Translations under genes and position numbers: made by a program | Source: Dehalococcoidia bacterium | GTDB lineage: Bacteria > Chloroflexota > Dehalococcoidia > Lucifugimonadales > UBA3495 | Direction of reading: 5' to 3' | NCBI GenBank assembly: GCA_012959605.1 | Contig: DUCU01000085.1 | Coordinates: forward strand, 20,177-84,176 | Length of the DNA stretch: 64,000 bases | Shown: piece by piece, positions 5,573 through 50,059 of the stretch | Layout: every line of letters begins with the position of its first letter | Numbering within the stretch: position 1 is the first letter of the stretch | Notes under the pieces: generated by a model | Seen by the model: only the letters and a program-made list of their open reading frames with translations | Databases searched by the model: none | What the model was told of the DNA's origin: nothing

Positions 5573-5648
5573 GGGCGGTTAGCTCAGTGGTTAGAGCGCC
5601 TCGTTCACACCGAGGAGGTCGGAGGTTCGACCCCTCCATCGCCCACCA
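5573..5648 (+). tRNA. tRNA-Val (anticodon CAC), CCA encoded
   Basis: Cloverleaf folded by hand. Acceptor GGGCGGT/ATCGCCC, D-arm GCTCAGTGGTTAGAGC, anticodon stem CCTCG/CGAGG with loop TTCACAC, T-arm GGAGGTTCGACCCCTCC. Confidence 0.9.
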
Positions 5649-5709
5649 TGCAGTTTGGGACCGCACGAGTCCAGCCTAGGATCCATAAGGATTAGCCTGG
5701 CTCTCTCGG

Positions 5710-5795
5710 GCCGAGGTGGCGGAACGGCAGACGCGCTGCGTTCAGGGCGCAGTGTCCTTACGGATGTGTGGGTTCAAATCCCACCCTCGGCACCA
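5710..5795 (+). tRNA. tRNA-Leu (anticodon CAG), long variable arm, CCA encoded
   Basis: Acceptor GCCGAGG/CCTCGGC, anticodon stem CTGCG/CGCAG with loop TTCAGGG, long variable arm, T-loop GGTTCAAATCC. Confidence 0.9.
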
Positions 5796-5831
5796 CCATA
5801 GCTAACAGCCACTAGTTGAAAGCTAAACATT

Positions 5832-5907
5832 GCGCTTGTAGCTCAGCGGATAGAGCACTGGCTTGCGGAGCCAGGGGTCGTGGGTTCAAATCCCGCCAAG
5901 CGCACCA
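5832..5907 (+). tRNA. tRNA-Arg (anticodon GCG), CCA encoded
   Basis: Acceptor GCGCTTG/CAAGCGC, anticodon stem CTGGC/GCCAG with loop TTGCGGA, giving anticodon GCG. T-arm GTGGGTTCAAATCCCGC. Confidence 0.85.
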
Positions 5908-10145: not shown

Positions 10146-11486
10146 TTGGCTGAAAAGAATATAGCTTCACGCGCAGTCTCCAATGTAACCCACGCCCATT
10201 TCGCCTGGTACATCGTGGCCATGGGCACCGCCCTGCAGCTCACCACCAACTTTGTCAGCCAGGCTTACAGCATCTTGGTGGTGGTCATGACCGACAAATT
10301 TGGCTGGTCGCTCACTGCCATCGTCCTCGCCTATTCGTTGCGCAGTATCGTTGGTGCGCTGTTGTCGCCCTACGCCGGTTCCTTGGGAGACAGATATGGC
10401 GCCAAGCGGGTCATGCTGGTAGGCGCCGGTTTTTTTGTCGGCGGGCTGGTGATGCTAAGCACCATCACCGAGCTCTGGCAGTTATTCCTTTACTACAGCA
10501 TCATCTTGGGCGTCGCTCAGGCCATGTTCCGAGTCAATATCCCCACCACCGTGGCTGCCTGGTTCAAGCAGAAGCTGGGTATCGCGGTGGGCATTCAGCA
10601 GTCGGCCGGCGGAATGGGCGCGTCGGTCCTGGCACCCGGGCTGACCGTCCTGTTGACCCAGACCAGTTGGCAGACCGCCTTCCTGCTCATCGGTATCGGC
10701 GGCGGAATCGTAGTATTTGCCCTGCTGGCATTCTTCCACGGTGAACCCTGGGATGTCGGCAAACTGCCCTACGGTGAGGATCCCAAAAGGAAAGCTGTGG
10801 TCAACCCTGTGAGCGGGGCCATGACCAAGATCAGGAACCAGGTCTTTATGAAACGGGCCAAGGAGACCAGGGCTTTCTGGTTCCTGCCCCTGGTCCATCA
10901 TCTGGGTTGCGTCGGCCATTCAATTTTCATCGTGCACGGCATCAACTACGCTCACGATCAGGGTATGTCCCTCAATGCTGCGTCGATAATCATCACGATT
11001 TATTCGCTTAGCAGTGTTGGCAGTCGTCTGATGGTGCCGATTTTGGCAGACCGCCTGGGAGCCAAAGGCGTGATGGCATTTTTCTACTTCATCCAGGGCG
11101 CGGCGATGCTCATGCTCTTCTGGACCACCGAGCCGTGGCAGTTCTACATCTTTGCTGTGGTGTTCGGAATCGGTTTCGGCGGCGAGATGTCGGCTTTCTT
11201 AGTGGTCAACCGCCAATACTTCGGTATGGGCCCGGTTCGGACTGTGTTCGGCATCCAGAGCATGGGCGCGGGACTTGGTATGGCCTTGGGCGGTCTGGTA
11301 GGCGCCGTAATCTACGACGCATTCGACTCATATAACTGGGCTTGGATTATTTCGTTCGCTGCCAGCATGGGCGGAATGATAGCCATCTTATTGATGGAGT
11401 CCACCAAGAACGAGCTGATCCCCTACTGGGAAGACTCACTGCCATCGGAGGCCCAGACCTCAGCTCCGTCACCGGCCGACGACTAG
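10146..11486 (+). CDS. MFS transporter (oxalate/formate-antiporter-like)
   Basis: 446-aa hydrophobic ORF. It shows an LGDRYGAKRV loop motif between TM2 and TM3 and a two-times-six helix layout with a central loop. Confidence 0.8.
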   Translation: MAEKNIASRAVSNVTHAHFAWYIVAMGTALQLTTNFVSQAYSILVVVMTDKFGWSLTAIVLAYSLRSIVGALLSPYAGSLGDRYGAKRVMLVGAGFFVGGLVMLSTITELWQLFLYYSIILGVAQAMFRVNIPTTVAAWFKQKLGIAVGIQQSAGGMGASVLAPGLTVLLTQTSWQTAFLLIGIGGGIVVFALLAFFHGEPWDVGKLPYGEDPKRKAVVNPVSGAMTKIRNQVFMKRAKETRAFWFLPLVHHLGCVGHSIFIVHGINYAHDQGMSLNAASIIITIYSLSSVGSRLMVPILADRLGAKGVMAFFYFIQGAAMLMLFWTTEPWQFYIFAVVFGIGFGGEMSAFLVVNRQYFGMGPVRTVFGIQSMGAGLGMALGGLVGAVIYDAFDSYNWAWIISFAASMGGMIAILLMESTKNELIPYWEDSLPSEAQTSAPSPADD

Positions 11487-11533
11487 CAGGATTAGAGCAG
11501 AACAACTCGTTCCTGTCATTCGCAACGTAAAAC

Positions 11534-11578
11534 AAAAAGGACCTTCCTGGATTGCAATCCAGGAAGGTCCTTTTCTTG
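11534..11578. terminator. bidirectional rho-independent terminator between convergent genes
   Basis: GGACCTTCCTGGAT / ATCCAGGAAGGTCC 14-bp stem, flanked by AAAAA on one side and TTTTCTTGTT on the other. Confidence 0.7.
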
Positions 11579-11609
11579 TTGTAGCTAATTCTGCTGTGGC
11601 GAGACTTGG

Positions 11610-13164
11610 TTAGTCGTCCGCCGGGGTTGGTGCCGGGACGGCTGCTTCTTCTGCTGCAGCCTTGCGGGCGACCGACGCTTTACTGAATCGTTTGCCGATG
11701 ATTCCCGTCTGGTAGGACGCCACCAGAGCACCCAACAGAATCGTGAAGACGACCGCTGTCGCGGCGTACTGGAAGCCCGTGCGATAGAAGGGCATGGCCT
11801 CAGCTTCGGTCATGAAGCCAATCCCTGCCGGCAATGCCAGACCCAGCATGGTGGCCGCGATGGTTACTCCGATGGTGTGGCCCATCTGCCGGCTGGTTTC
11901 CATCACGCCCGAGGCAAAACTCCGGTCCTCGGGCAGGCTATTCATGATCGTGGCATTACTGGGCGCGTTGAACGTGTGTGCCGATGAACGCCGGTATCAG
12001 CAGTATGGGCAGCACCCAGATCGGAACTGAAGTAGAGAACAGGGCCAGTAGCACAAACCCGGACGCGATGGCCAACAACCCCGCCGGTCGGATCCACCTT
12101 GGGTTGGATTTGTCGAAATAGTACCCAGCAATCAATGGCAGGAAAATGCCCAGGAATTGACCAGGTATGAGCACCCATGACGCGACGATGGGGTCGTAAC
12201 CCAGCCCGTTTTCAACCAGGATGGGCACCAAGGTCACCACGGCCATCATGGACATGTGGAAGGTGTGGTCACTGAACAAGGCCATGGAGAACTGGCTCTT
12301 CTTGAAATTGCCAAAGTTCAAGAATGGCTGGACCGAGCGACGCTGCACAATGATAAAAGCCGTCGCCATCACTAAGAACAAAGCATGGACTGGTAGGTGG
12401 TATTCCAGGGCCTCTGCGCTGACAAAGCTCTCATCGCCCTCGTGGACATGCAGTCCGGAGAGGATGAATACGGCCAACGTAGCCATCATGAGAAGTGCGC
12501 TGGGCGAGCCCAACACCACTTTTTTGGCGGCATCAGTAGCCTTGAGCAGTTCGTACTGCAGCAGCGGTCGGGCCATCCACAGTGCAAACATCCCAACCGG
12601 AACAGAGGTCAAGAAGACCAGTCTCCAACTGAAGAACTGCAAGAACACGCCGAATAAGGCCATGCCCAAAAGTGTGCCAATTCTTGCTGCGATAATGGGG
12701 ATGGAATAAGCTCTACCGCGTTCTTTATCGCCAAAAACAATCGCCAAGATAGGGTTGGAATTGGAGCTAATCATAGACGCACCAAGCCCAACGGACCCGC
12801 TCCAGACGATTGCTTGGTTGATGTTTGCTGAGGTAACGGCCAGCAACGAGGCAAGGGCCATTATAATCACGCCGATAAAGTAAACCTTGACGTGGCCAAC
12901 CTTGGAACCGCGCCTGGCGAAGAAGAATACCGTGCTGCCGATCACTATCATTCTGGCGATGATGGTCCAGGCGGCCTGGGAGACATCGACGCCAAAGTCC
13001 TCGGCCATCGAAGGCACCGAAAGGGCCATGGGGATGGTCGAGAGCTGAACCAACAACTGGGTTGAGGCCAGGGAGAGCAGGACCCGTTTTCTAGTATCAG
13101 TCGAACTCAGATCCCGGAAGGAAGCCACCAGGTTTAGACTGCGGAATGCATTTCTGTCTATCAA
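11610..13164 (-). pseudogene. MFS transporter (DHA2-like) interrupted by a frameshift
   Basis: The 402-aa ORF (11956..13164) ends ..LLIPAFIGTHVQRAQ*. The +1 frame continues SSAHTFNAPSNATIMNSLPEDRSFASGVMETSRQMGHTIG into the 111-aa ORF (11610..11945). Together they make one MFS protein, with the shift lying at a GGCACACAC run (about 11958-11990). Confidence 0.65.
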
Positions 13165-13326: not shown

Positions 13327-13380
13327 CAAAACCTCTGATTATTAGCGATTTGCACTGCGACCTAGACACTTTAAAAATAA

Positions 13381-13416
13381 CCTCCCCCTGTCATAAAGGG
13401 GGACCGAGGGGGATTT
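13381..13416 (+). repeat. copy A of a 36-nt G/C-hairpin intergenic repeat
   Basis: CCTCCCCCTGTCATAAAGGGGGACCGAGGGGGATTT. It differs at 2 loop positions from copies at 14448..14483 and 17190..17225. Confidence 0.85.
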
Positions 13417-13443
13417 CTGTTAATAGACATTCACAGCCATCTG

Positions 13444-14400
13444 GTGATGCCGGAATACCTGGAGTACCTGACCGGCCGGGGCAACCTGCCCAAGGCGGTC
13501 CTGCGCGGCGGTGCCTACTTCGTCAGCTGCGGCGGCGGCTACACCCAAACCTCCGCAGCCGTGCACGCCGACGTTGAGCAAAAACTTAGGGACATGGAAC
13601 AGATCGGTGTCGATTTAGCCGTGATCAACCACGGCATCCCCGGTCCTGAGATGCTGGGCGGCGCAGAGGCCGACGACTGGGCCGCAAGGATGAACGACTT
13701 CCAAGCGGAGGTCATCCAGAAATACCCTGGCAAGTTCATCGGCTGGGCCAACATTGGCTTTGGCAGTCCCGAACGCTCCATCCAAGAGGTTGATCGCTGT
13801 ATCAACGAGCTTGGCTACAAGGGCGTTCAGCTATTCTCCAACATCAACCAAAAGGTGGTGGACTCTCCTGAGTTCATGCCCGTCTACCGGCACATCGCCA
13901 AACTTGGTGTGCCCATCAACCTGCACCCCACCGCGCCCATGAACCTGAATGGCATGGACCTGCAACCCTTGGTGCGCGGCATGTCGCTGATGTTCGACTC
14001 CACGCTGGCGACCATGCGGCTGGTGATGAGTGGCATCTTTGAAGAAGAACCTGGCTTCAAACTGATCGTCCCCCACACCGGCGGCTGGGTGCCCTACCTG
14101 CGCGGCCGAGTGGAGCGCATGATCGACATCTACGAACCACCGGAAGGCGAGCCAAAACTGGCCAGGCCGTCGGCCGAATCAGTGGACCGCATCTATGTGG
14201 ACACGGTGGCGCACAGCCCCGAGACGATGAAGTACTGCTACGAGATGTTTGGCCCGGAAAAAATCATGTTTGGCACCGATCACCCATTCATGCACTGGGA
14301 GATCTACCGGGAGATGATGGACGGCTTGGGTTGCACCGACGCCGAACGCGAACTCATCTACCACACCAACGCCGAAACCCTACTAGGCCTAACAAGCTAG
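13444..14400 (+). CDS. amidohydrolase_2 (ACMSD-like metal-dependent hydrolase/decarboxylase) family protein, paralog 1
   Basis: 318-aa ORF, roughly 60-65% identical by eye to the 16164..17141 product. Motifs include FSNINQK, HPTAPMN, IVPHTGGW, DTVAHSP and FGTDHPF. The in-frame codons just upstream (13423-13443: I D I H S H L) encode the HxH metal motif, so the real start is probably upstream and non-canonical (see findings). Confidence 0.8.
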   Translation: MMPEYLEYLTGRGNLPKAVLRGGAYFVSCGGGYTQTSAAVHADVEQKLRDMEQIGVDLAVINHGIPGPEMLGGAEADDWAARMNDFQAEVIQKYPGKFIGWANIGFGSPERSIQEVDRCINELGYKGVQLFSNINQKVVDSPEFMPVYRHIAKLGVPINLHPTAPMNLNGMDLQPLVRGMSLMFDSTLATMRLVMSGIFEEEPGFKLIVPHTGGWVPYLRGRVERMIDIYEPPEGEPKLARPSAESVDRIYVDTVAHSPETMKYCYEMFGPEKIMFGTDHPFMHWEIYREMMDGLGCTDAERELIYHTNAETLLGLTS

Positions 14401-14483
14401 GCCAGGCAGGCTGAGCCTGCACCCAAATACGTGCGGAAGCAAACCAACCTCCCCCTTTCGTAAAGGGGGACCGAGGGGGATTT
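14401..14483 (+). repeat. about 83-nt conserved 3'-flank module (hairpin GCAGGCT-N-AGCCTGC plus 36-nt repeat copy B)
   Basis: It starts immediately after the stop codon. Nearly the same sequence follows the stop of the paralog at 17142..17225, and the 36-nt core 14448..14483 is identical to 17190..17225. Confidence 0.85.
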
Positions 14484-14552
14484 CCGCCGCCACCCAATCT
14501 AAGAAGCTCAAGGGATAACCGCAAAGTAAGGACTCGAAGCAATCCCGCAACA

Positions 14553-14594
14553 CACCTGTCATTCTGAGGAGCGCCGTAGGCCGACGAAGAATCT
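14553..14594 (+). repeat. short dispersed repeat (CACCTGTCATTCTGAGGAG...)
   Basis: CACCTGTCATTCTGAGGAGCGCC recurs as CACCTGTCATTCTGAGGAGTGCC at 17387..17408. A related GACATTCTGAAG lies at about 14636-14647. Confidence 0.7.
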
Positions 14595-14699
14595 ACCAAC
14601 CCTCATCTTGGCAGACCCTTCGCCCCGCTCAGGGTGACATTCTGAAGAACAATTCTGCCTAAACCGGGGAAACACAGGAAAATCCGGTCGCTGCAGCCC

Positions 14700-15974
14700 C
14701 TAATCAATGCTCCAACTGGGGTTTTTGTTGGCCTCTGCTTGCAGGTGGTCTACGATCCAGTCTTTGACTGATTCCGAGACGTAAAAGGTGGGCATCAGTA
14801 GATCGCTGTCGGCAAAGACCCGTCCGTCGGCCCTTGCTTGGTCTGCTGATTTGGAGCCGGGTAGCATGCGTATCCCGATTCTCAGATTGGCGACCGTGGG
14901 CTTGATGGCTCGAAGAAAGACGAGCTTCCGCTCCATGGTTCCTTGGGTCTCGCCCGGAGAGCCAAAGGTCTGGCCCACGGTGTAGGGCAGGCCGCCCTCT
15001 TCGCACAAACGGCAAGCCTCAAGCATCTGGTCCAGGCGAGTGGACAACTCATCAGGATCAATGGCATCGACCACCAGGTCGCCAACTATCACCAGTGAGC
15101 ACCCAGATTTTTTCATCAGGCCAATCAGTTCTGGGTCGCAGTTCCTGGGCACCAGACCGGTGTTCCACTCGATCTTTAAATCAGCATCGATTAGAGCTTG
15201 GCAAAATGACTTGGCGTGATCGACCGGGGCGTTGAAACCGTTGGCTATGAAGAAGAACTTGCTCAGCCCCAGCCGTTGCTTCATGTCCTTAACTTCGTCC
15301 AGGACCTCTTGAATCGGCCGCAGGTTTTGACGGTCTGCAGCGTCGCCGCGTCCTCCCTGGCTGCTGAACCACTTGGTAATCACTCCAATGCCAAACCCGG
15401 CCTCAGAGTATTTGTCCAAGTCCAATTCTTCCAGGCGCGGGGGCTTCATGACCCCAGAAGTAGGCTGCGGGTCGGTCACTGTAGTCTTGCCGTCTGCTCG
15501 GTACACCAGACCTGGCAAGTCGGTGTACGACTTCCCACTTTCAATTCGGTCAGCTAAATCGGAGAACACGTCGCCACCGCTACCGGCTACGCCCACATCG
15601 GGTCCAATAAAATCGAAGCAATCGGACGGGAGAATACTGAACGCCGGCCCTCCGCAAACGATGGTGGCCTTGCTGATCGATCGGATCAGGTCAGTCACCT
15701 CCTTGGTGATGAGAAGTACCGACTCTGGGTTCAAATTGCTGCCATTATCCAAGTTTCTGATGGACAGCCCCACCATGTCGGGCTGGAATTCTTGCACTGA
15801 CTTTTTCACCTCATCCAGGTAGTCGTCGGCAAACATGAGGTCCAGCATTTTCGTGTCGTGCTTCTCGGGGTCCAAGTACCCGGAGATGTAGGCTAGCCCC
15901 AGTGGCAGGGGCTGGGCCTGAATGTTGTTCATGTAGCGCCCGTGGCGGTTGGTTGCGATCAATAAGATTCTCAT
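14700..15974 (-). CDS. B12-binding-domain / radical-SAM-like protein lacking the CxxxCxxC motif
   Basis: The probable start is the internal ATG at 15974 (GGAGAG RBS), giving MRILLIATNRH... The N-terminus resembles the cobalamin-binding domain of class B radical SAM enzymes, and the C-terminal half has rSAM-barrel-like segments (GSPGETQGT). The protein's cysteines are mostly isolated (one CRLC pair) and none forms CxxxCxxC. Confidence 0.65.
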   Translation of the reverse strand: MRILLIATNRHGRYMNNIQAQPLPLGLAYISGYLDPEKHDTKMLDLMFADDYLDEVKKSVQEFQPDMVGLSIRNLDNGSNLNPESVLLITKEVTDLIRSISKATIVCGGPAFSILPSDCFDFIGPDVGVAGSGGDVFSDLADRIESGKSYTDLPGLVYRADGKTTVTDPQPTSGVMKPPRLEELDLDKYSEAGFGIGVITKWFSSQGGRGDAADRQNLRPIQEVLDEVKDMKQRLGLSKFFFIANGFNAPVDHAKSFCQALIDADLKIEWNTGLVPRNCDPELIGLMKKSGCSLVIVGDLVVDAIDPDELSTRLDQMLEACRLCEEGGLPYTVGQTFGSPGETQGTMERKLVFLRAIKPTVANLRIGIRMLPGSKSADQARADGRVFADSDLLMPTFYVSESVKDWIVDHLQAEANKNPSWSID

Positions 15975-16034
15975 ACACTCTCCGGTCCAAGCCTGGTATC
16001 CAAACCACACCATTATTGCCCATCAATCGATATC

Positions 16035-16077
16035 TCTCAATGGTAATTTGTGACGCGGTCGCAAATTACCATTGAGA
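16035..16077. promoter_or_regulatory. 43-nt near-perfect palindrome in a divergent promoter region (candidate operator or structured leader)
   Basis: TCTCAATGGTAATTTG tgacgcggtcg CAAATTACCATTGAGA, with 16-bp perfect arms. It lies between the start of the rSAM-like gene (15974, minus) and the amidohydrolase paralog 2 (16164, plus). Confidence 0.6.
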
Positions 16078-16130
16078 CGCCAGGCTCGCCAGGTTAAACT
16101 GTCCCCGTTATTAATCTAGGCTAAAAGCCG

Positions 16131-16160
16131 TCCCCTAGCTAATAAGGGGATTGAGAGGGA
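16131..16160 (+). repeat. degenerate copy D of the G/C-hairpin repeat, abutting a start codon
   Basis: TCCCCTAGCTAATAAGGGGATTGAGAGGGA has the same architecture (C-run, loop, G-run, then GAG-G-run). It ends 3 nt before ATG 16164. Confidence 0.5.
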
Positions 16161-16163
16161 CTC

Positions 16164-17141
16164 ATGCGAATCGATGTTCATAGCCACCTGATCTACCTGC
16201 CCTACTTGGAGTACTTGGCGGGCCGTAGCTCTCTGCCCCAGGGCGTCCTGCAGGGCGGGACCTACTTTGTTAGCTGCACTGGCGGCTACCAGCATGCCTC
16301 ACCGATCATCCACGCTGACGTTGACCAGAAGCTGCGCGACATGGAAGACCTCGACATTGGAATGTCCATCTTGAGCCACGGTATGCCGGGTCCTGAGCTG
16401 CTTGGCGGGTCCGAAGCCGACGACTGGGCCTCCCGAATCAACGACCATCTGGCAGAGGTTATCCAGTCGCACCCCGGCAAGTTCCAAGCCTGGGCGACCC
16501 TGGGCTGGGGCAGCGCCGACCGGACCATCGCCGAGATCGACCGCTGTGTGCAGCAACTGGGTTTCAAAGGCGTGTATCTCTTTTCCAACATCAACCAGAA
16601 GACCCTGGACAGCAAAGAATTCTGGCCGGTGTACAAACACGTAGAGAGTCTGGGAATCCCCATGGACATGCACCCAACCGCGCCCATCAACATGAACGGC
16701 ATCGACCACCGGCCCTTGGTGCCCGGTATGGCCTTTATGTTTGACACCACGCTGGCCACGGTGCGGATGGTCATGAGCGGCGTCTTTGAAGAATATCCGG
16801 AGCTTAAATTGATCGTCCCCCACACCGGCGGGTTTGTGCCCTTCATCCAGGGCCGCGTTGGCCGCATGATTGACGCTTGGACCTCGCCCGATGATTGGAA
16901 CAATCTGTCAGATCCATCCCAGGCATCTTTCGCCAAGATTTACGTAGACACCGTGGCCCACAGTCCGGAAGCGCTGGAATATTGTTACAAGGTCTACGGA
17001 GCCGACAAACTGCTCTACGGCACCGACCATCCGTTCTCCCACTTCGAAGTATTCAACGAAATGGTCGACAATCTAGATTGCTCAGAATCAGACCGAGAGC
17101 TAATCAACCACGGCAACGCCGAACGCATACTAGGGCTATAA
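16164..17141 (+). CDS. amidohydrolase_2 (ACMSD-like) family protein, paralog 2
   Basis: 325-aa ORF starting MRIDVHSHL (HxH motif). It carries HPTAPIN, IVPHTGGF, DTVAHSP and YGTDHPF. Confidence 0.85.
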   Translation: MRIDVHSHLIYLPYLEYLAGRSSLPQGVLQGGTYFVSCTGGYQHASPIIHADVDQKLRDMEDLDIGMSILSHGMPGPELLGGSEADDWASRINDHLAEVIQSHPGKFQAWATLGWGSADRTIAEIDRCVQQLGFKGVYLFSNINQKTLDSKEFWPVYKHVESLGIPMDMHPTAPINMNGIDHRPLVPGMAFMFDTTLATVRMVMSGVFEEYPELKLIVPHTGGFVPFIQGRVGRMIDAWTSPDDWNNLSDPSQASFAKIYVDTVAHSPEALEYCYKVYGADKLLYGTDHPFSHFEVFNEMVDNLDCSESDRELINHGNAERILGL

Positions 17142-17225
17142 GCAGGCAGGCTCAGCCTGCACGCAAATACCTGGCGGCATCAAAACAAACCTCCCCCTTT
17201 CGTAAAGGGGGACCGAGGGGGATTT
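17142..17225 (+). repeat. about 84-nt conserved 3'-flank module (partner of 14401..14483; contains repeat copy C at 17190..17225)
   Basis: GCAGGCAGGCTCAGCCTGCACGCAAATAC...CCTCCCCCTTTCGTAAAGGGGGACCGAGGGGGATTT, directly after the TAA stop. Confidence 0.85.
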
Positions 17226-17280
17226 AGCCCATCCAAACCCAACAAAATGACAGCTTTCAGCGCTCAGTCCACAGCCGAAA

Positions 17281-17346
17281 GTCCCTCCCCCCGCGCCAGG
17301 GGCCAAAAATCCCTTCCCCCGCGCCGGGGGAAGGTTAGGATGGGGG
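17281..17346 (+). repeat. two tandem G/C hairpin units (CCCTCCCCCCGCGCCAGGGG / CCCTTCCCCCGCGCCGGGGGAAGG)
   Basis: Read directly from the sequence. Each unit is a C-run/G-run hairpin around GCGCC, and the second is followed by TTAGGATGGGGG. Confidence 0.6.
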
Positions 17347-17386
17347 TCACGCCTCGCTGAAACCATGTTAAGAGGCCCCGCCAACC

Positions 17387-17408
17387 ACCTGTCATTCTGA
17401 GGAGTGCC
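17387..17408 (+). repeat. second copy of the CACCTGTCATTCTGAGGAG repeat
   Basis: Matches 14553..14575 at 21 of 22 positions by eye. Confidence 0.7.
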
Positions 17409-17482
17409 AGAAACCCCAAAACTCAACAAACCAAACGCTGATCGCTGTTAGCTGACCGCTGACAGCTACCACAAGGAGAACC

Positions 17483-18259
17483 ATGAACCTGAGAGATTCT
17501 GTAATCATCGTTACCGGCTCTGCCACCGGACTCGGCGCCGCCATCGTAAAGCAGGTGGCTGCTAAGGGTGCGCGCGTGGTGATCAACTACACCAAGAGTG
17601 AGAAAGAGGCTCACGAGACAGAGGCCGTCTGCGACTATCTGGGCGTGGAGTCGATATTATGTAAAGCTGATGTGTCGGTTGATGAAGACTGCCGACGCAT
17701 GGCGAACCAGGCCATGGAAAAGTGGGACCGGATTGACGGGCTGGTCAACAACGCCGCTCGTTCGGTCTTCGCCAACTCCAAAGACCTGGAAGCTTTGGAA
17801 GGTCAGCAATTCATGGATGTCTTCTCGGTGAACGTGGTCGGTCCCTACCAGATGGCCCGGGCAGTTGTGCCTGCCATGAAAAAGCAGGGCCACGGCTCCA
17901 TCGTCAACGTCTCGTCCATCTCCGCCATCACCGGCGCCGGCAGCTCCATCGCCTACGCCGCTTCCAAGGGCGCATTGAACACCATGACCCTGTCTTTGGC
18001 CCGCTCCCTGGCGCCGGAGATCAAAGTCAACGCAATCATGCCCAGCGCGTTCCCTTCACGTTGGTGGGCCGACGGAATCGGCGAAGACGCAACTAAGACC
18101 CTGTTTGAAAAATTCAACGCCCAGGTGCCATTGCGAGAAGTGGCAACCCCCGAATCCGTAGCCCGGACCGTGGTCTGGCTGTTGGAAGACGCTGCTTTCA
18201 CCACCGGAGAGATGATTAAGATAGATTCTGGCATGCATCTGCTGGGTTTCCAGCCTTAG
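17483..18259 (+). CDS. SDR family oxidoreductase
   Basis: 258-aa ORF. It has VTGSATGLGAAI (TGxxxGxG), NNAA and YAASKGAL (YxxxK). An AAGGAG RBS is present. Confidence 0.85.
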   Translation: MNLRDSVIIVTGSATGLGAAIVKQVAAKGARVVINYTKSEKEAHETEAVCDYLGVESILCKADVSVDEDCRRMANQAMEKWDRIDGLVNNAARSVFANSKDLEALEGQQFMDVFSVNVVGPYQMARAVVPAMKKQGHGSIVNVSSISAITGAGSSIAYAASKGALNTMTLSLARSLAPEIKVNAIMPSAFPSRWWADGIGEDATKTLFEKFNAQVPLREVATPESVARTVVWLLEDAAFTTGEMIKIDSGMHLLGFQP

Positions 18260-18355: not shown

Positions 18356-18700
18356 ATGAAGACCGACCATATAAAGAAACGGAACATGATCATGCAGATA
18401 TTTCTGATGGTTATTACCCTAGGCATCTACGCCATCTATTGGTTCTACTCCACCCTGAACGAACTCCACATTGCCAACGGCAATGATGGCGGCGCACTGC
18501 TCTGGACTATCCTGGCGTTGATTCCGCTCTTGAACCTATTCGCCTACTGGCACTATTCCAGTGAATTCTCTAAGTTCAATGACGGAAAATACCCCTCAAT
18601 AGTGGTGTTCGTGGCGTGGGTCCTGTTCTCGCCACTTGTCTGGTTGCTGGTACAAATAGATCTGAACAAAGCTGCGGATGGCGGGTCGTTGAATAACTGA
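18356..18700 (+). CDS. DUF4234-like small membrane protein
   Basis: 114-aa ORF. RNMIMQIFLMVITLGIYAIYWFY is the signature opening of DUF4234 proteins, and there are 3 hydrophobic helices. Confidence 0.6.
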   Translation: MKTDHIKKRNMIMQIFLMVITLGIYAIYWFYSTLNELHIANGNDGGALLWTILALIPLLNLFAYWHYSSEFSKFNDGKYPSIVVFVAWVLFSPLVWLLVQIDLNKAADGGSLNN

Positions 18701-19746: not shown

Positions 19747-19974
19747 GCCAGCTTTAATCGGGCGCAGCCCAACGGTAAGCTTTTTGTTAAAAGACCACGG
19801 GTAGAAGACCAACGGGGGGAATGACCGGATGTCCACATTCGGAGACCTTGAACGCACCTTCGCTGATCTTTATCCCTACCGCTGGGTTTTTGCGGTTGGA
19901 TCGATGGTCGTAATAGCGGTGTCCGTCGCCTTCGCTTATAGGAGGGGCTGGCACCGCTATCTTTGGGGCCACAG

Positions 19975-20173
19975 AGTGCCGGTGGATATGAGACACTTCG
20001 AGCGGCATCCCCTGGTCTGATAAGAAAGCGTGGAATTGACGCACGGATTCTGAGTAGGTCTCTTGTGTCCGGGGGCTCATGTTCTCAGCGGCAAGGTGGC
20101 GACCGAAGGATTCGAGGTTAACACCGATATCGCCGCCTGCTACAATAGCTTTGGTTGAGGCTGATTTGGCCAT
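19975..20173 (-). pseudogene. tyrosine recombinase/integrase remnant (N-terminal SAM-like domain only)
   Basis: From the internal ATG 20173: MAKSASTKAIVAGGDIGVNLESFGRHLAAENMSPRTQETYSESVRQFHAFLSDQGMPLEVSHI. This is the pattern of the integrase N-terminal core-binding domain. The frame then degenerates into unrelated sequence and no catalytic domain is present. It lies about 105 nt from tRNA-Val(TAC). Confidence 0.5.
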
Positions 20174-20277
20174 GAAAAACACCGTCGTAAAGCTAAATAA
20201 ATATGTCCAGCTATATCCTGTCGGAGCGGTGTGCGTCAACGGAAAATCAGTTATCTACTGTCGGTAGGCATAAAAAT

Positions 20278-20354
20278 GGGTGGTTAGCTCAGTTGGTTAG
20301 AGCACCTGCTTTACACGCAGGGGGTCAGAGGTTCGAGTCCTCTACCGCCCACCA
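20278..20354 (+). tRNA. tRNA-Val (anticodon TAC), CCA encoded
   Basis: Acceptor GGGTGGT/ACCGCCC, anticodon stem CCTGC/GCAGG with loop TTTACAC, T-arm CAGAGGTTCGAGTCCTCTG. Confidence 0.9.
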
Positions 20355-20655: not shown

Positions 20656-21945
20656 TTACTCTTTCGGAATCTCCCCTGTGATTCCGTTTGTTATCAGATC
20701 CGCTATTTCGTGCTCTGAAAGCCCCAGTAGTTCAGTCAGCAGCTGATGGTTGTGTTCTCCCAGACCGGGGGCCGGTCTAGGGATTCCTCTTGGACTCTTC
20801 GAGAGAAGCCAAGGCGTGGTTACCTGCTTATACGGACCTGTTTCTGGATGGTCAACTACATCCCAGAAACCTCTTGATTCAAGATGAGGATCGGTTATTA
20901 CCTCGTTGCCATTAAGTACTGGAGCCGACGGAACACCATGAGACTGTAGTCGATGCATCGCTTCGTAATGATCTTGTTCGATGGTCCATAATGCGATAAT
21001 TGCGTCCAACTCGTTCTGATTAGCATGTCTTGATTCATTGTCACAGAATCTATTATCACTGGCTAATTCCAAATCGCCCAGTGCCATACATAGTCCACGC
21101 CATTCGTCTTCAGTTCCAACTGCGATAGCAACCCACATGTCTTCCCCCAGACAAGGGTATACACCATGAGGCGACATATCTCGGTGAAGATTCTCCATCG
21201 TCACAGCTATCCTACCGGTGACCGAGAAATCCAGTATAGATTCGCCAAGAAGCATAGTCGTGACTTCTCGTTGCGACAGATCAACTAAGCAGCCTTTACC
21301 GGTCTTGAGGCGGCTACGCAATGCAGTCATCAAAGCACCGAACGAAAGAATCCCGACGACCGGGTCTGGATAGACTAGATTGGTCAACAAAGGAAGACCA
21401 TCCTCGTATCCAGTGATTGAAGCTAATCCTCCAGTTTGCTCCAGAGTTGAGCCTAGAGACCCGTAGTTAGCTTCTGGTCCAGTGGCCCCTTGACTGCTGA
21501 TTTTCAAGTAGATCAGTTGAGGATTTTGACTTGAAACCACATCATAGCCAAGCCCCAGTCGATCCATCACCGAACCTCGGTAATTCTCAACTAATACGTC
21601 GCAGACTTTTACCAAATCAAGAAGTAGTTCTCTTCCTTGATCTGTCGCTAAATCGATTGTTAGTGATTGTTTGTTAATGTTCCTGTGGACATGATGAGCT
21701 GTACGGTTCCATGGCCGTTCTCCTGGGTCACCGTTAGGGTACACTCGGAGATCATCCGGCCCGGGTCGTGCTTTCCCCCGGTTTATGTCCATGCGAGATA
21801 GAGATTCGATTTTAATTACTTCAGCGCCCATAAAACCAAGGAACATGGTTGCATATGGACCAGCCGCAACCTGGCTAAGGTCTAATATACGTAATCCTTC
21901 GAGTGCTGGTTTGGGAGAGGAAATAGACATTCTACGATACCTCAA
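20656..21945 (-). CDS. CaiB/BaiF family-III CoA-transferase
   Basis: 429-aa ORF with LEGLRILDLSQVAAGPYATMFLGFMGAEVIKIES, the family-III N-terminal signature. It overlaps the upstream paralog by 14 nt. Confidence 0.85.
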   Translation of the reverse strand: MRYRRMSISSPKPALEGLRILDLSQVAAGPYATMFLGFMGAEVIKIESLSRMDINRGKARPGPDDLRVYPNGDPGERPWNRTAHHVHRNINKQSLTIDLATDQGRELLLDLVKVCDVLVENYRGSVMDRLGLGYDVVSSQNPQLIYLKISSQGATGPEANYGSLGSTLEQTGGLASITGYEDGLPLLTNLVYPDPVVGILSFGALMTALRSRLKTGKGCLVDLSQREVTTMLLGESILDFSVTGRIAVTMENLHRDMSPHGVYPCLGEDMWVAIAVGTEDEWRGLCMALGDLELASDNRFCDNESRHANQNELDAIIALWTIEQDHYEAMHRLQSHGVPSAPVLNGNEVITDPHLESRGFWDVVDHPETGPYKQVTTPWLLSKSPRGIPRPAPGLGEHNHQLLTELLGLSEHEIADLITNGITGEIPKE

Positions 21946-23101
21946 GTCCCAATTCAGTCATAGAATACCCCAAACCCTGGCACAATATCTCTTCATTGTG
22001 CTCGCCTAGTCTGGGGGCTTGGGAAATTTCCCAAGAATTGTCAGCGATTCGATAAGGGGCACCAGGTTGAATGGTATTCGGGAGTGATTCACCCCCAACT
22101 AGCTTAAAGAATTCCCGGTCTACAAACTGCTGAGACATCAAAAGGTCTTCCACTGTTGCTACGTATCCAGTGATGGTGCGTAAGGACTGGAGTGTATGGT
22201 AGATCTCTTCTTTAGGTTTACGTACTGCCCAATCGGAGATGACGACCAAGAGTGCGTCCTGATTAGCCCGTCGTGACTCTTGGGTAATGAATCTCGAATC
22301 GTTAACCAATTCGGGTTTTTCGATCAGCTCACACACTTTAAGCCAAGTGCTCTCCTGAACACCTGTCTCCAACCCAGGGCTAACCCAACCGTCTTTAGCC
22401 CGAACTAGATTGCTTCCCCGCCGCGCGAGAGGACGGCCAAACTGAGCATAGATAGAAGAATATAACTGTGATACGGCCATCACTTCCATCGCAGAGATAT
22501 CCACGTGTTGACCGAATCCTTGAGTATCTTTGACATATATGGCCATGGTGGTGGCTGAGAACGCACTGATACCGGTTGTATAGAGCGCCGCTTCGCCACC
22601 CACTTTCAGGGGTGGCCTGTCCGGGAGCCCAATGGTATACATGAGAGCCCCAGCGGCCTGAGCTATCAGGTCAGAGCCTTTGTATGCGCTGTAGGGTCCG
22701 GTTTGTCCGAACGGAGTAACTGATACGTAAACCAGGTCATGACATGAGTCAGCGATGTCACTATAACCCAGTCCACAGGCCGTCAAATAGCCAGGAGGAA
22801 AGCTCTCAATCAGAACGTCACAGTTCTGGGCTAACTTCATGATAGCTTGAGCATGACTGGGAACGAACGGGTCCAGTGTCACACTCTTTTTGCTGGTATT
22901 GATATAAGAAAAAAGTGCACTAGCTTGGGAGTGGTCGATCGTCTGAAAGAACGGTTTGGATGACCGGCAAGGGTCGCCGGTATACGGAGGTTCGACCTTT
23001 ATGACGTCTGCGCCCCATCCAGCCAAAAGTTTTGCGCAGAATGGGCCAGATACGCCTTGGCTTAGGTCTAGTACATTGATATCGCTGAGGAGATTATCCA
23101 T
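21932..23101 (-). CDS. CaiB/BaiF family-III CoA-transferase
   Basis: 389-aa ORF with LSDINVLDLSQGVSGPFCAKLLAGWGADVIKVEPP. Confidence 0.85.
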   Translation of the reverse strand: MDNLLSDINVLDLSQGVSGPFCAKLLAGWGADVIKVEPPYTGDPCRSSKPFFQTIDHSQASALFSYINTSKKSVTLDPFVPSHAQAIMKLAQNCDVLIESFPPGYLTACGLGYSDIADSCHDLVYVSVTPFGQTGPYSAYKGSDLIAQAAGALMYTIGLPDRPPLKVGGEAALYTTGISAFSATTMAIYVKDTQGFGQHVDISAMEVMAVSQLYSSIYAQFGRPLARRGSNLVRAKDGWVSPGLETGVQESTWLKVCELIEKPELVNDSRFITQESRRANQDALLVVISDWAVRKPKEEIYHTLQSLRTITGYVATVEDLLMSQQFVDREFFKLVGGESLPNTIQPGAPYRIADNSWEISQAPRLGEHNEEILCQGLGYSMTELGLEVS

Positions 23102-46134: not shown

Positions 46135-48564
46135 TTAAACTTCGTCCCAGTCTACAATACCGCGTTCTTTGAAATCAGTGATCTGGTCATCGGTGTATCC
46201 CAACTCTTTGAGCACTGGTCGGGTGTGCTCCCCTTTAATTGGGGCCGGGCCAGCTTTGCCCGCGGTCTTCGAGAATACGACCACTGGGGTATAGCGCCAG
46301 AACTCGCCGAGGCCAGTGGCTTCTATCTGCGTTAGGATGCCGTTTTCTCGTACGTGGCTGTCTACATCGAAGAAGTAGTACATTCCCCGGTCTTCGGCCT
46401 TGACGCAGGCGACATCGGCATCAGTTAGCAGCTTCTCCCATTCCAAGGGCTCCCTGGGTACGAACACTTGGGTTAGTTCTTCAATCAGTTCGTTATCGTG
46501 TTTCTCTCGTGCTGACTGAGTTGCAAATCGAGGGTCTTTGAGAAGGTCTGGCCGCTCGATGGTTTGGCAGAGAGCCTGCCATTCCTCTTCAAATGGGCAG
46601 GCGAGAAAAACCCAGCCGCTCTTTGCGGGGTACAGGCGGTGCAGAGCGTCAAGGCCGTACCCGTCTCGGTCTGGCAGACGCCGGGGTAACTTGCCTTGGT
46701 GCCAGAAAAAATCATCGGCATTTGCATAGGCATTGGCCGCAATCATGGTGGATTCAACGTACTGAGCCTTGCCGGTGCGCTCCCTGGCGTAGAGTCCCAG
46801 TACCAGACCAACAGAGTTGACCATGGCCGTGGTGTGATCGGCAGTGCCGTCATTAGCTCGTTTGAGTTGCGTGGACACCGCGACGATTTCATCAATGGTC
46901 ATAGTATGTTCTGGAGGCGGAAAAGAATCACGCCCCATCTGGGCAACGCCTCCCCCGGAGACCGCCCCGGCGATGGGGGCCATGGACGGCCGGTGGGAAT
47001 ACGGGCCGGTGGAGCCGTAGCCGCCGGCGTAGAGGTAGATCAAGTTGGGATTAATCTCGGCCAGTTGCTCGTAGCCGATGCCGGTGCGCTCTGGGGCTCC
47101 CGGCCGCATGCTGTGCAGTAGCATGTCGGCCTTGGCCGCCAGTTGGTGCATTATCTTCTGGCCTTCAGGGGCCTTCAGGTTCAAGCAGACACCCTCAGAG
47201 CCAGCCATCGTGCGCTGCACTGAAATGCCTTGGAGACCCTGCCTTCCCCAGTCACCGTCTAAGGCCTCGATGCGAATGACCCTGGCACCCAACTCTGCCA
47301 CTAGAGCGCAACCCAGCGGCCCGTTAATCACTGTGCCTAAGTCCAGCAGCGTAACGCCTTCTAACGCCAACTTGGGCATGGGTTCTTGGCCTTCGTTGGC
47401 TGGAGTTTTAGTGGCTGAATCCAGGCGTGCTAGGACTTCATCAGTGTGTTGGCCGGGCTCGGGAGCGGCGCCCTTGGCGCTGCCGGGAGTCTCCGACATG
47501 ATTACCATGGGGCCCAGTTGTCGTAATTCTCCCACCCCTGAGTGTTGGGCGTTGGCCACGTGGCCGTTGTGCACAATTTGAGGATGCTCCAGCGCCGTTT
47601 CAGAGGTCATGTAGGGCTCCGCTGCCACATCACTACCTTCTCCTGCGAATAATTCCATCCACTCATCCAGAGTCTTTTCCTGAATCTTCTCCAGCATCAT
47701 CTTTTCTAGCGATGCCACATGTTCCACTGCCACGGATGGAGCGGTTTTGTAACGCGGATCATCGTATATGAAGTCCATCTCCAAAGAATGCACCATGGAA
47801 CGGAACAGCCGATGTACTATGTTGCCCAACTGGATCCAGTGGCCGTCTTTGGTGCGAGCGGGCAGATATCCCGTGGGATTGGGACGTCCGATGCCCACTC
47901 TTGTGTCTGGTGGGTGGTTTACCGGGTCCTTGGCGATCATCTGACCGTGAATCCAGGATATGTGGTCGTAGGTGGTGATGGTCTTGAGCATGCTAGTTTC
48001 AACCAGCTGCCCCTGGCCAGTTTTCTCACGCAGGTATAGGGCGGTAGTGATACCCCGTATGAGGGCCGTGGCCGCTGAGTGGCAAACACCGTGTACCACC
48101 ACGTAGTTGGGTCCTTGCCTTGGGTTTTGCCCGGAAAACATCATCATCCGGCCAGTCTTGGCGGCAACCACGGCGTCGTAGCCTTTGTAGTTGGCGTAGG
48201 GGCCTTCAGAACCAAATCCGGTCAGTGACGCGTAAACCAACTCCGGATGATTCGCTCTCAAACTGGTGTAATCGATGCCCAATCGCTTGGTTACACCGGG
48301 GCGAAAGCTCTCGACCACTACATCGGAGACCTGCGCCAACTTCTGTGCCTGCTCTCGGCCTTCGGCAGTCTTTAAGTCGAGGATGACGCTTTTTTTGCCC
48401 CGGTTCCATTGGATAGATCCGGGCGATTCTCTGAATCTGTCACCAGACGGGGATTCAACCTTGATCACTTCGGCGCCGAAGTCGGACATCACCATGGTGG
48501 CAATGCCTCCAGGCATTCCTCTGGTGAAGTCCAGGACCGTGATCCCATCGAAGACCTGCGCCAT
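46135..48564 (-). CDS. tandem (double-domain) CaiB/BaiF family-III CoA-transferase
   Basis: 809-aa ORF with two complete family-III units. Unit 1 starts FDGITVLDFTRGMPGGIATMVMSDFGAEVIKVESP, and unit 2 starts at about residue 405, LEGVTLLDLGTVINGPLGCALVAELGARVIRIEA. Confidence 0.8.
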   Translation of the reverse strand: MAQVFDGITVLDFTRGMPGGIATMVMSDFGAEVIKVESPSGDRFRESPGSIQWNRGKKSVILDLKTAEGREQAQKLAQVSDVVVESFRPGVTKRLGIDYTSLRANHPELVYASLTGFGSEGPYANYKGYDAVVAAKTGRMMMFSGQNPRQGPNYVVVHGVCHSAATALIRGITTALYLREKTGQGQLVETSMLKTITTYDHISWIHGQMIAKDPVNHPPDTRVGIGRPNPTGYLPARTKDGHWIQLGNIVHRLFRSMVHSLEMDFIYDDPRYKTAPSVAVEHVASLEKMMLEKIQEKTLDEWMELFAGEGSDVAAEPYMTSETALEHPQIVHNGHVANAQHSGVGELRQLGPMVIMSETPGSAKGAAPEPGQHTDEVLARLDSATKTPANEGQEPMPKLALEGVTLLDLGTVINGPLGCALVAELGARVIRIEALDGDWGRQGLQGISVQRTMAGSEGVCLNLKAPEGQKIMHQLAAKADMLLHSMRPGAPERTGIGYEQLAEINPNLIYLYAGGYGSTGPYSHRPSMAPIAGAVSGGGVAQMGRDSFPPPEHTMTIDEIVAVSTQLKRANDGTADHTTAMVNSVGLVLGLYARERTGKAQYVESTMIAANAYANADDFFWHQGKLPRRLPDRDGYGLDALHRLYPAKSGWVFLACPFEEEWQALCQTIERPDLLKDPRFATQSAREKHDNELIEELTQVFVPREPLEWEKLLTDADVACVKAEDRGMYYFFDVDSHVRENGILTQIEATGLGEFWRYTPVVVFSKTAGKAGPAPIKGEHTRPVLKELGYTDDQITDFKERGIVDWDEV

Positions 48565-49303: not shown

Positions 49304-50059
49304 TTAGCCAGCAGTATCCAACAACGCCCTTTTAAACCCTTCCCAACTCCCGGAATCGAAATCACTCTCAGTATCAGTGTGTTCAGTGCCAGGCTGATTA
49401 TCCCAGCCGTCAAAGTGGATTAACCCCTCAAGGTCCATCCGGTTTCGCCAGCCAGCGGATTGCAGCACCGGCTCTTTAGGGAATTCCACTGGGTATCCCA
49501 GGCAAAGATAAGCCACCGGTATTACATGAAGCGGCACGCCCAATATCTGCCGCAGCTGTGGCTGTTTCAATATGCTCACCCAGCCCACGCCAATCCCCTC
49601 CGCACGGGCCGCCAGCCACAGATTCTGCACGGCACAACAAGTGGAATACAAATCGGTCTCCTGGATAGAATTGCGCCCCAATACGACATCTGCTCTGGTC
49701 GGGTCACAGGTCACGCATACGTTGACTGGCGATTCTAAAATGCCTTCCAACTTCAGAGATAGATAGTGAGAACGTCTTGGTTCGTCGAAAAATGTTGATG
49801 CTGCCTGGCGCTCACGGTCGAACAAGTCCTTAACTTTTAGTCTAATACCCTTGTCCTGCACCATGATAAAGTCCCACGGCTGCATAAACCCAACAGAAGG
49901 CCCATGATGGGCGGCGCGGATGATGCGAGCTAAGACATCCGGTGGAACGGGGTCGCTTTTGAAAGTTCTAATATCCCGACGAGAGTAGATAGCGCGGTAA
50001 AGCCCGCGTTGTTCTTCTGTGGAGAATTCGCCCGTCTGAATCTGTGAATTAGAAACCAT
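49304..50059 (-). CDS. bluB: 5,6-dimethylbenzimidazole synthase (BluB-type nitroreductase-fold)
   Basis: 251-aa ORF. RRDIRTFKSDPVPPDVLARIIRAAHHGPSVGFMQPWDFIMV and YLSLKLEGILESP match BluB-type sequences. It is preceded by a cobalamin riboswitch. Confidence 0.7.
   Translation of the reverse strand: MVSNSQIQTGEFSTEEQRGLYRAIYSRRDIRTFKSDPVPPDVLARIIRAAHHGPSVGFMQPWDFIMVQDKGIRLKVKDLFDRERQAASTFFDEPRRSHYLSLKLEGILESPVNVCVTCDPTRADVVLGRNSIQETDLYSTCCAVQNLWLAARAEGIGVGWVSILKQPQLRQILGVPLHVIPVAYLCLGYPVEFPKEPVLQSAGWRNRMDLEGLIHFDGWDNQPGTEHTDTESDFDSGSWEGFKRALLDTAG

Follow-up and report, generated by a model that had tools for sequence, protein, structure and literature searches.

Class B radical S-adenosylmethionine (SAM) enzymes are defined by the joint use of two cofactors, and one of them, the tryptophan 2-C-methyltransferase TsrM, works without radicals yet keeps its iron-sulfur (Fe-S) cluster. 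Beneath the cobalt of TsrM lies Arg69, which blocks the sixth ligand and favors Co(I) and five-coordinate methylcobalamin (MeCbl), with polar methyl transfer (PMC8992657, PMC13331322). TsrM is also active without the reductant normally added for cluster reduction, indicating that on this scaffold the cluster is not a radical-generating redox centre (PMC8992657). A related family, TIGR04072 (“lipid biosynthesis B12-binding/radical SAM protein”, the ladderane-cluster type), has a role in ladderane formation that is only hypothesized (PMC13459092). Here we analyzed a window of 64,000 nucleotides from contig DUCU01000085.1 of a Dehalococcoidia bacterium (all positions below are those of this window), in which a gene at 14700..15974 on the minus strand encodes a 424-amino-acid homolog of these enzymes without a CxxxCxxC cluster motif. 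The protein belongs to a clade of SAR202/Dehalococcoidia homologs that lost the cluster-binding loop and kept the cobalamin-binding motifs, making it a candidate cobalamin-only enzyme.

A class B homolog without a cluster site

The gene and its parts were located as follows.

14700..15974 (-), gene of the cluster-less B12-binding/radical-SAM-like protein, 424 aa, with the start MRILLIATN found in all homologs
15465..15974 (-), cobalamin-binding Rossmann domain, about residues 1-170, from PF02310, the TsrM alignment and motif conservation
14850..15407 (-), radical-SAM-type partial TIM barrel, about residues 190-375, retaining FGxPGET, Asp303 and the beta6 Arg369
15756..15758 (-), codon of Arg73, the equivalent of TsrM Arg69, from the alignment and its invariance
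15321..15371 (-), degenerate former cluster loop, residues 202-218, following an invariant GFGIGVxTK in place of the CxxxCxxC loop

A preliminary description, made from the sequence alone, had read this product as a radical SAM homolog whose cysteines are isolated apart from one late pair, and had judged a canonical radical SAM enzyme to be excluded. All peptide segments it quoted are present in the product. The seven cysteines map to residues 107, 119, 258, 279, 292, 321 and 324, with C321-x-x-C324 as the sole close pair. Residues 197-216 (window 15326-15386), which run into the former cluster loop, read GVITKWFSSQGGRGDAADRQ. In the Pfam search that the description had proposed, the B12-binding profile PF02310 matched residues 17-140 with 49.8 bits against a cutoff of 32.1, whereas the Radical_SAM profile PF04055 reached 26.0 bits, below its cutoff of 29.5. 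This partial match covers profile positions 22-161 of 166 and skips the N-terminal part of the profile, which bears the cluster motif. CxxxCxxC is absent from the 424-aa protein and from the other two frames of its strand, so a simple frameshift is excluded, and a mis-called frame, named beforehand as the finding that would overturn the description, was ruled out in the same way. The exclusion of a canonical radical SAM enzyme thus holds, with the motif absent in all frames and its loss conserved throughout the clade described below.

We used AlphaFold (AF2) to predict the structure of the protein, which gave a mean predicted local distance difference test (pLDDT) value of 83.5 and a predicted template modeling (pTM) score of 0.79. 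Residues 204-212, in the former cluster loop, fell below a pLDDT of 50 and form one of only two low-confidence segments. The model contains a partial (beta/alpha)6 TIM-barrel core, for which Foldseek returned TsrM, OxsB, AprD4, MgmA, CysS, viperin, HydE and others at probability 1.0, and the order of the Rossmann domain followed by the barrel, as well as the fold itself, is that of TsrM and OxsB. TsrM (PDB 6WTE/6WTF) was both the best PDB sequence match (E 2.5e-18) and the best fold match (E 2e-25, TM 0.74-0.77), and the next fold matches, OxsB, AprD4, MgmA and CysS, are all class B enzymes. The two proteins share the cobalamin domain followed by the partial barrel, the Arg of the GxSxR motif, and the GG and GE motifs, and the ribose-motif Asp and beta6 Arg of TsrM also align with residues of the 424-aa protein. 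They differ at the cluster: CX3CX2C is retained in TsrM, as is a [4Fe-4S] cluster in which Glu273 ligates the unique iron, whereas the window protein lacks these cysteines and has Gly246 in place of the Glu. Glu236 and Lys240 in the TsrM Cys loop, which bridge SAM and cobalamin, have no counterpart in the window protein, and neither does Lys346. TsrM is also longer, with 575 aa and a larger C-terminal cap.

Among the NCBIfam profiles, the top match was TIGR04072, whose 187.9 bits (cutoff 360) come from two stretches that leave out the cluster region, and the TsrM family TIGR04428 scored 86.7 bits against a cutoff of 500. The nearest canonical sisters of the protein (P0126-P0134, 31-38% identical over the full length) scored 296-352 bits on TIGR04072, likewise below its cutoff. 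The second-ranking profile was TIGR04385, that of BzaD from anaerobic B12 lower-ligand biosynthesis, at 120 bits over residues 20-404. The window protein differs from BzaD in lying far below the cutoff of 450, in having no bza gene context, and in its host, which makes 5,6-dimethylbenzimidazole (DMB) aerobically with BluB. The BluB gene and its riboswitch lie elsewhere in the window.

49304-50059 (-), BluB, O2-dependent DMB synthase (TIGR02476, 261 bits)
50176-50441 (-), cobalamin riboswitch RF00174 (79.9 bits), directly upstream of BluB

The position of the riboswitch places lower-ligand synthesis under B12 feedback, and the pair marks the host as an aerobic cobalamin user. The Rfam scan found no cobalamin riboswitch near the B12-binding gene and its neighbors; the sole riboswitch of the window is the one preceding BluB, and a cobalamin riboswitch upstream of the B12-binding gene was accordingly rejected.

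The CxxxCxxC loop was lost once within SAR202/Dehalococcoidia

We searched 5.8 billion proteins and obtained 977 homologs, of which the best 120 were examined for the motif. These 120 are full-length and 53-100% identical to the window protein, and none carries a CxxxCxxC-like motif (0/120). The boundary of the loss was located with an exhaustive HMMER search over 1.84 billion cluster representatives. Representatives P0121-P0125 (52, 45, 40, 36 and 37% identity, all full-length) lack CxxxCxxC; from P0126 (38%) on, nearly every full-length representative has the motif at about residue 200, where it aligns with the variable loop that follows the invariant GFGIGVxTK of the query. In a neighbor-joining tree of 149 sequences, the Cys-less proteins grouped into one clade of 25 terminals, nested among canonical relatives but containing none of them, and one Cys-less protein, P0139, fell outside it. 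We conclude that the CxxxCxxC loop was lost once, in an ancestor within SAR202/Dehalococcoidia, and that the clade has been under purifying selection since. The cluster site of P0139 reads QRGCPFECLWDD (CPFEC..WDD), with the first two cysteines kept, the third lost and a short His loop of the canonical type; it possibly represents an independent partial loss or an intermediate stage of cluster loss.

The window gene itself is functional, as indicated by a low ratio of nonsynonymous to synonymous substitution rates (dN/dS 0.083 at dS 0.62) against the ortholog in a 90%-identical relative (locus L093) and by an identical protein on 22 contigs from several samples. The contig of the window is GBIDBA_10000913 (84 kb) in JGI sample 3300001683. 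Public annotations call its homologs only “cobalamin-dependent protein” or “YgiQ family”. Our literature search turned up neither a report of a class B clade lacking the cluster nor one of the Cys-less family in SAR202, and as far as that search showed, the clade is uncharacterized and undescribed.

We analyzed the distribution of the family with one genome per GTDB species and found 242 relatives. The best 80 of these came from metagenome-assembled genomes titled SAR202, Dehalococcoidia or Chloroflexota, except for two titled “uncultured bacterium”. The family has at least two paralog subfamilies: subfamily I, which holds the window gene and is 65-78% identical to its product, and subfamily II, which is 49-57% identical. 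About ten SAR202/Dehalococcoidia genomes carry two or three Cys-less paralogs (e.g., L013 with L066, L015 with L082, and L019 with L047 and L084). The Cys-less family is thus a near-core gene, often in two to three copies, of the SAR202/Dehalococcoidia, which are dominant deep-ocean heterotrophs. Its function therefore bears on B12 demand in these organisms and possibly on the turnover of recalcitrant organic carbon.

Residue conservation was assessed in an alignment of 38 clade members and in a second set of 26 Cys-less and 123 canonical representatives, with cobalamin motif definitions taken from structural reviews of OxsB, TsrM and TokK (PMC9204698) and mapped through the HMMER alignment to TsrM. 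Across the 38 members, mean column identity was 0.78 in the cobalamin domain, 0.75 in the barrel and 0.30 in the former cluster loop, which is the only relaxed segment (0.30 vs. 0.76 elsewhere). The loop also varies in length, from 11 to 28 aa in the 38-member alignment and from 11 to 27 aa in the representative set, whereas it is fixed at 22 aa in 119 of the 123 canonical relatives.

The cobalamin motifs, in contrast to this loop, are kept. G69-x-S71-x-R73 corresponds to the downstream cobalamin motif of TsrM, G65-x-T67-x-R69, and G69, S71 and R73 are invariant (38/38); among the 26 Cys-less representatives, G69 is found in all, S71 in 25, and R73, G108 and G109 are invariant. The Gly-Gly base-off motif is G108-G109 (38/38), and the Gly-Glu motif of alpha5 is G134-D135, with G134 in 37 of the 38 and position 135 occupied by Glu in 24 and Asp in 14. 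The cobalamin binding that had been guessed at for this protein is thus backed by invariant motifs, which predict it from sequence. Arg73 is found in 26/26 Cys-less and 123/123 canonical relatives, so it was inherited and is not an adaptation to cluster loss.

In the barrel, FGxPGET, the counterpart of the TsrM GxIxGxxE motif, is kept in the clade, as are the ribose-motif Asp (TsrM Asp335; D303, 32/38) and the beta6 Arg (TsrM Arg412; R369, 34/38). The GGE motif's Glu, TsrM Glu273, which ligates the cluster iron, is replaced by Gly246 (Gly in 36/38), and the Cys-loop residues Glu236/Lys240 and the alpha4a Lys346 of TsrM have no equivalents. With several SAM contacts known from TsrM gone, SAM may not be the methyl donor. 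Invariant polar residues of the barrel are K201, R219, E227, K255, W270, N271, T272, D280, E282, N363 and R365.

Compared with their TIGR04072-like canonical relatives, the Cys-less proteins share R73, the GG motif, FGxPGET, W270 and C258/C292. In the canonical relatives, CxxxCxxC sits in the loop fixed at 22 residues and the His loop is 7 residues long; the clade has no cluster cysteines, a loop of 11-28 residues and a clade-specific His loop of 12 residues (aa 10-21), five longer. Other clade-specific states are Gly246, Asp303 and Asn271/Thr272, as well as cysteines at 107, 119, 279 and 321, where the canonical relatives have aliphatic residues.

Proposed cobalamin-only chemistry and its alternatives

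Sequence comparison and the predicted model suggest that the Cys-less homolog may be a cobalamin-only, non-radical enzyme resembling TsrM, a reading we prefer but hold tentatively. Because it has no cluster-binding site, it should be unable to cleave SAM reductively to a 5'-deoxyadenosyl radical. Cobalamin would be bound base-off/His-off and, as in TsrM, would have an Arg (here Arg73) beneath the cobalt; polar, cobalamin-only chemistry would cycle the cofactor between Co(I) and methyl-Co(III) in the barrel. The reaction would be a TsrM-like methyl transfer to or from a substrate that the barrel holds, and an external reductant would occasionally reactivate the enzyme. Since the cluster is not a radical-generating redox centre in TsrM, its loss in an aerobic lineage is plausible. 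Methyl transfer through Co(I) and MeCbl works in aerobes with occasional reactivation, as MetH demonstrates. In the epoxyqueuosine reductase QueG, an Arg blocks the lower face of the cobalt and favors Co(I) (PMC13331322). Both enzymes are mechanistic analogues only, as their folds and families are unrelated to the 424-aa protein (no Pfam or NCBIfam match), and QueG, unlike the cluster-less protein, carries Fe-S clusters.

Several observations weigh against this proposal. TsrM retains its cluster, which leaves a cluster-free member of the scaffold without precedent, and Arg73, being inherited from canonical relatives, is no adaptation to cluster loss. The SAM contacts that were lost (the GGE Glu, Glu236/Lys240 and Lys346) mean that SAM may not donate the methyl group, and the closest canonical family, the TIGR04072-like proteins, is itself uncharacterized. 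Finally, no methyl donor or acceptor partner, reductive activase or pterin-binding gene is consistently found near the gene across the loci.

If the proposal is true, a selected and widespread clade without the cluster but with the cobalamin motifs would show that the scaffold is able to run on cobalamin alone. It would also provide a natural, probably oxygen-tolerant system for Co(I)/MeCbl chemistry in that fold. The clade is surprising for radical-SAM and B12 enzymology, with a function predicted from sequence and model, and for annotation, Cys-less proteins should not be labeled radical SAM enzymes. A wider version of the proposal is unlikely: a radical-SAM scaffold freed of its O2-labile Fe-S cluster would constitute a new B12 enzyme class with aerobic Co(I)/methyl-Co(III) chemistry in SAR202, which ranks among the most abundant bacterial groups in the dark ocean. 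Its reactions might include adding methyl groups to, or removing them from, aromatic or alicyclic acids that bear methoxy or carboxyl groups, in some cases together with decarboxylases of the ACMSD/LigW type. Such a class would extend the “radical SAM enzyme without radicals” represented by TsrM to a radical SAM fold without a cluster, and would reveal a previously unrecognized cobalamin demand in the degradation of recalcitrant organic matter.

That the catalytic cluster and several SAM contacts were lost, that the gene stands on its own without conserved enzymatic partners, and that the cobalamin motifs are its best-conserved features would all suit a non-catalytic cobalamin-binding protein, such as a sensor, chaperone, store or delivery factor built on an old enzyme scaffold. 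We consider this unlikely, since the barrel is as conserved as the cobalamin domain (0.75 vs. 0.78) and holds many invariant polar residues, as in a binding or active site, and two to three paralogs per genome suggest substrate diversification. The idea put forward earlier of a scaffold partner for the neighboring enzymes found no support.

The gene neighborhood raises a further, rather improbable explanation, which is compatible with the cobalamin-only proposal: a dedicated four-gene pathway module with the flanking amidohydrolases and a short-chain dehydrogenase/reductase (SDR), for example one in which methoxylated aromatic acids undergo cobalamin-dependent O-demethylation and then LigW-type decarboxylation. 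The flanking genes are the following.

13417..14400 (+), amidohydrolase A, ACMSD/LigW-type Amidohydro_2, with a CTG start for full length and the first canonical start at 13444
16164..17141 (+), amidohydrolase B, likewise an ACMSD/LigW-type Amidohydro_2, full-length and including HxH, in divergent orientation to the B12 gene
17483..18259 (+), classical SDR, syntenic only in relatives of at least 90% identity

The four open reading frames (ORFs) of the block were confirmed at 13444..14400 (+), 14700..15974 (-), 16164..17141 (+) and 17483..18259 (+), and the layout given in the preliminary description (amidohydrolase_2, B12 gene, amidohydrolase_2, SDR) is correct in coordinates, strands and families. 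The order of enoyl-CoA hydratase, SDR and amidohydrolase B, then the B12 gene, then amidohydrolase A is kept in the identical contigs and at L093, where all genes of the block are under purifying selection. At 81% identity this order is lost. Across other species of subfamily I, the sandwich occurs in none of 14 loci, every immediate neighbor is different, and no neighbor family appears in more than 5 of the 14. De novo clustering of 1267 neighbor ORFs from 80 loci revealed no conserved operon partner for subfamily I.

The block arrangement is also absent from most of the 64 subfamily II loci, where the gene stands alone between oppositely oriented genes of conserved housekeeping synteny, in the order HerA-like / gene / DUF1385 / L31-L27-L21 / FakA-DegV / RecG. 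Neighbors in these 64 loci are DUF1385 (41), FakA (32), HerA-like (31), DegV (31), RecG (29) and L21 (28), with variable inserts of a divergent family III CoA-transferase (23/64) and of a same-strand thiolase-like plus DUF35-type gene (19/64). A conserved operon partner was thus rejected for subfamily II as well, given the opposite orientation of the housekeeping neighbors and the presence of the same-strand thiolase-like/DUF35 pair in only 19/64. The deep Cys-less branches P0124 and P0125 again have different gene contexts. In the window, neighboring genes of the block converge or diverge, and the spacers between them carry hairpins that resemble terminators. The B12 gene is a stand-alone transcription unit, and its sandwiching between two amidohydrolase paralogs is a shallow local synteny rather than a family-wide module. 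By the test of neighborhood conservation set out with it, the candidate module proposed at the outset is not a conserved one, as the neighborhood is kept only at 90% identity or above and is gone at 81%, in 14/14 subfamily I species and in most of the 64 subfamily II loci.

Amidohydrolases nevertheless recur beside the gene, and together with the order kept under purifying selection at L093 they speak for a module. In a sub-lineage of subfamily II, comprising about 11 species, two Amidohydro_2 genes in tandem, divergent from the B12 gene, are found 0-450 bp upstream of it; these genes are non-orthologous to the window's amidohydrolases, with only 25-29% identity. Further Amidohydro_2 neighbors are found at L013 (same strand, 138 bp upstream), L099 (a deep Cys-less branch) and L010. 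By HMM detection in the same loci, the density of Amidohydro_2 ORFs was 0.93 per 10 kb within 1.6 kb of the gene (25 in 269 kb) and 0.084 per 10 kb farther away (10 in 1188 kb), an 11-fold difference. It was noted post hoc, comes down to about 4-5 independent events once related loci are collapsed, and concerns genomes in which catabolic paralogs abound. This adjacency is suggestive of a loose functional link with the B12 gene, possibly to Amidohydro_2-based catabolism of aromatic or heterocyclic acids. Along with the limits of that enrichment, the shallow synteny, the housekeeping context of most subfamily II genes, the convergent and divergent orientation with hairpins between the genes, and the lack of conservation of a palindrome between the B12 gene and amidohydrolase B (see below) argue against a dedicated module.

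Like the mutases that use adenosylcobalamin (AdoCbl), the protein pairs a Rossmann domain with a conserved barrel, and its host is aerobic, as judged from BluB, so that AdoCbl homolysis could have replaced SAM/[4Fe-4S] as the radical source. Such an AdoCbl-type radical enzyme is very unlikely, however, because the His-on motif DxHxxG is absent, an Arg under the cobalt, as in TsrM and QueG, favors Co(I) and heterolytic chemistry, and Pfam and NCBIfam detected no AdoCbl-enzyme family.

More doubtful still is a metal cluster that is carried by other cysteines (107, 119, 279 and 321, plus C258, C292 and C324). Seven cysteines are conserved, four of them clade-specific gains, but the deepest Cys-less branches, P0123-P0125, have not kept C321 and C324, and C258, C292 and C324 are also common in canonical relatives. 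In the secondary-structure map, the positions appear scattered over both domains and different faces of the barrel, and a change from aliphatic residues to Cys is typically seen where positions are buried. A pseudogene in decay, or an artefact of assembly or frameshift, would fit the absent hallmark motif and the sub-threshold PF04055 match, but is practically out of the question given the intact ORF, the absence of the motif in alternative frames, the identical protein on 22 contigs, hundreds of full-length homologs and a dN/dS of 0.083 with family-wide conservation.

Flanking amidohydrolases, repeats and other features of the window

The two amidohydrolases are paralogs with 60% identity. 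They matched PF04909 with 96 and 120 bits against a cutoff of 26.4, and no NCBIfam equivalog matched either. Their best PDB matches were human ACMSD (E 1.5e-33) and the gamma-resorcylate, 2,3-dihydroxybenzoate and 5-carboxyvanillate decarboxylases. They resemble the ACMSD/LigW subgroup in an N-terminal HxH and in HPT, PHTGG and GTDHPF segments where other metal or catalytic residues are expected. Amidohydrolase B begins with MRIDVHSH, and its HPT, PHTGG and GTDHPF segments fall within the stretch aligned to human ACMSD. The HxH motif of amidohydrolase A (LIDIHSH) is encoded in frame at 13420-13440, 5' of the first ATG, GTG or TTG (13444), which means either a rare CTG start or a truncated amidohydrolase A without two metal ligands. 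The orthologous start codon is TTG at L093 and CTG (13417) in the window, and the called lengths are 325 aa and 317-318 aa, respectively. Against its L093 ortholog, amidohydrolase A has a dN/dS of 0.029.

Both amidohydrolases are bordered by repeats.

13360..13416 (+), hairpin repeat copy 1 (…TCCCCCTGTCATAAAGGGGGACCGAGGGGGATTT), abutting the start of amidohydrolase A and supplying the Shine-Dalgarno-like GAGGGGGA
14403..14483 (+), hairpin modules after amidohydrolase A (GCAGGCTGAGCCTGC, then repeat copy 2 at 14427-14483)
17143..17225 (+), the same hairpin modules after amidohydrolase B (repeat copy 3 at 17169-17225)
16035..16077 (no strand), nearly perfect inverted repeat of 20 nt (TCTCAATGGTAATTTGTGAC gtc GCAAATTACCATTGAGA) in the spacer from the B12 gene to amidohydrolase B

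The hairpin repeat of about 57 nt (TCCCCCTTTCGTAAAGGGGGACCGAGGGGGATTT) thus has three copies, which have in common an exact 21-mer that is otherwise absent from the 64 kb. Copies 2 and 3 are preceded by another shared hairpin (GCAGGCTnAGCCTGC), just past both amidohydrolase stop codons, and L093 has diverged versions of the hairpin repeats at the corresponding places. Two insertions 3' of the amidohydrolases, of about 190 bp (~14500-14690) and about 200 bp (~17260-17465), are absent from L093; they share CCTGTCATTCTGAGGAG(C/T)GCC and include G+C-rich hairpins, which suggests a small mobile repeat resembling miniature inverted-repeat transposable elements (MITEs) or repetitive extragenic palindromic (REP) sequences. 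Each arm of the 20-nt inverted repeat overlaps the TTGAGA -35-like hexamer of a divergent promoter-like site. This palindrome occurs once in the window and is not conserved at L093, where one arm has diverged, and a shared operator in the divergent promoter was therefore ruled out.

The block contains no transporter, as had been noted, yet two major facilitator superfamily (MFS) transporter genes abut it at 10146-13164. An MFS transporter in this stretch (11610-13164) appears split into a 402-aa ORF (11956-13164) and a 111-aa ORF (11610-11945) on the minus strand, only 10 nt apart. The identical contigs show the same split, which may reflect a frameshift or truncation of the transporter. On the other side, between the SDR and the enoyl-CoA hydratase, lies a gene for a small DUF4234 membrane protein (18356-18700, +). 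It is missing from the L093 spacer, indicating a lineage-specific insertion.

At 19787-20354, a truncated ORF with a weak match to a phage-integrase N-terminal domain (22.5 bits, below the cutoff) lies beside tRNA-Val(tac) (20278-20354), and the GC content drops there from 0.55-0.58 to 0.47-0.50. This may mark the edge of an island-like segment (about 6-20 kb) that holds the block and starts near the tRNA cluster at 5573-5907, but such an island is only suggestive, as the integrase-like ORF is sub-threshold and truncated. Elsewhere in the window, an 809-aa protein (46135-48564, -) is a fusion in which two family III CoA-transferase domains are joined (PF02515, 534 bits in two stretches), and a tandem pair of separate CoA-transferases is found at 20656-23101.

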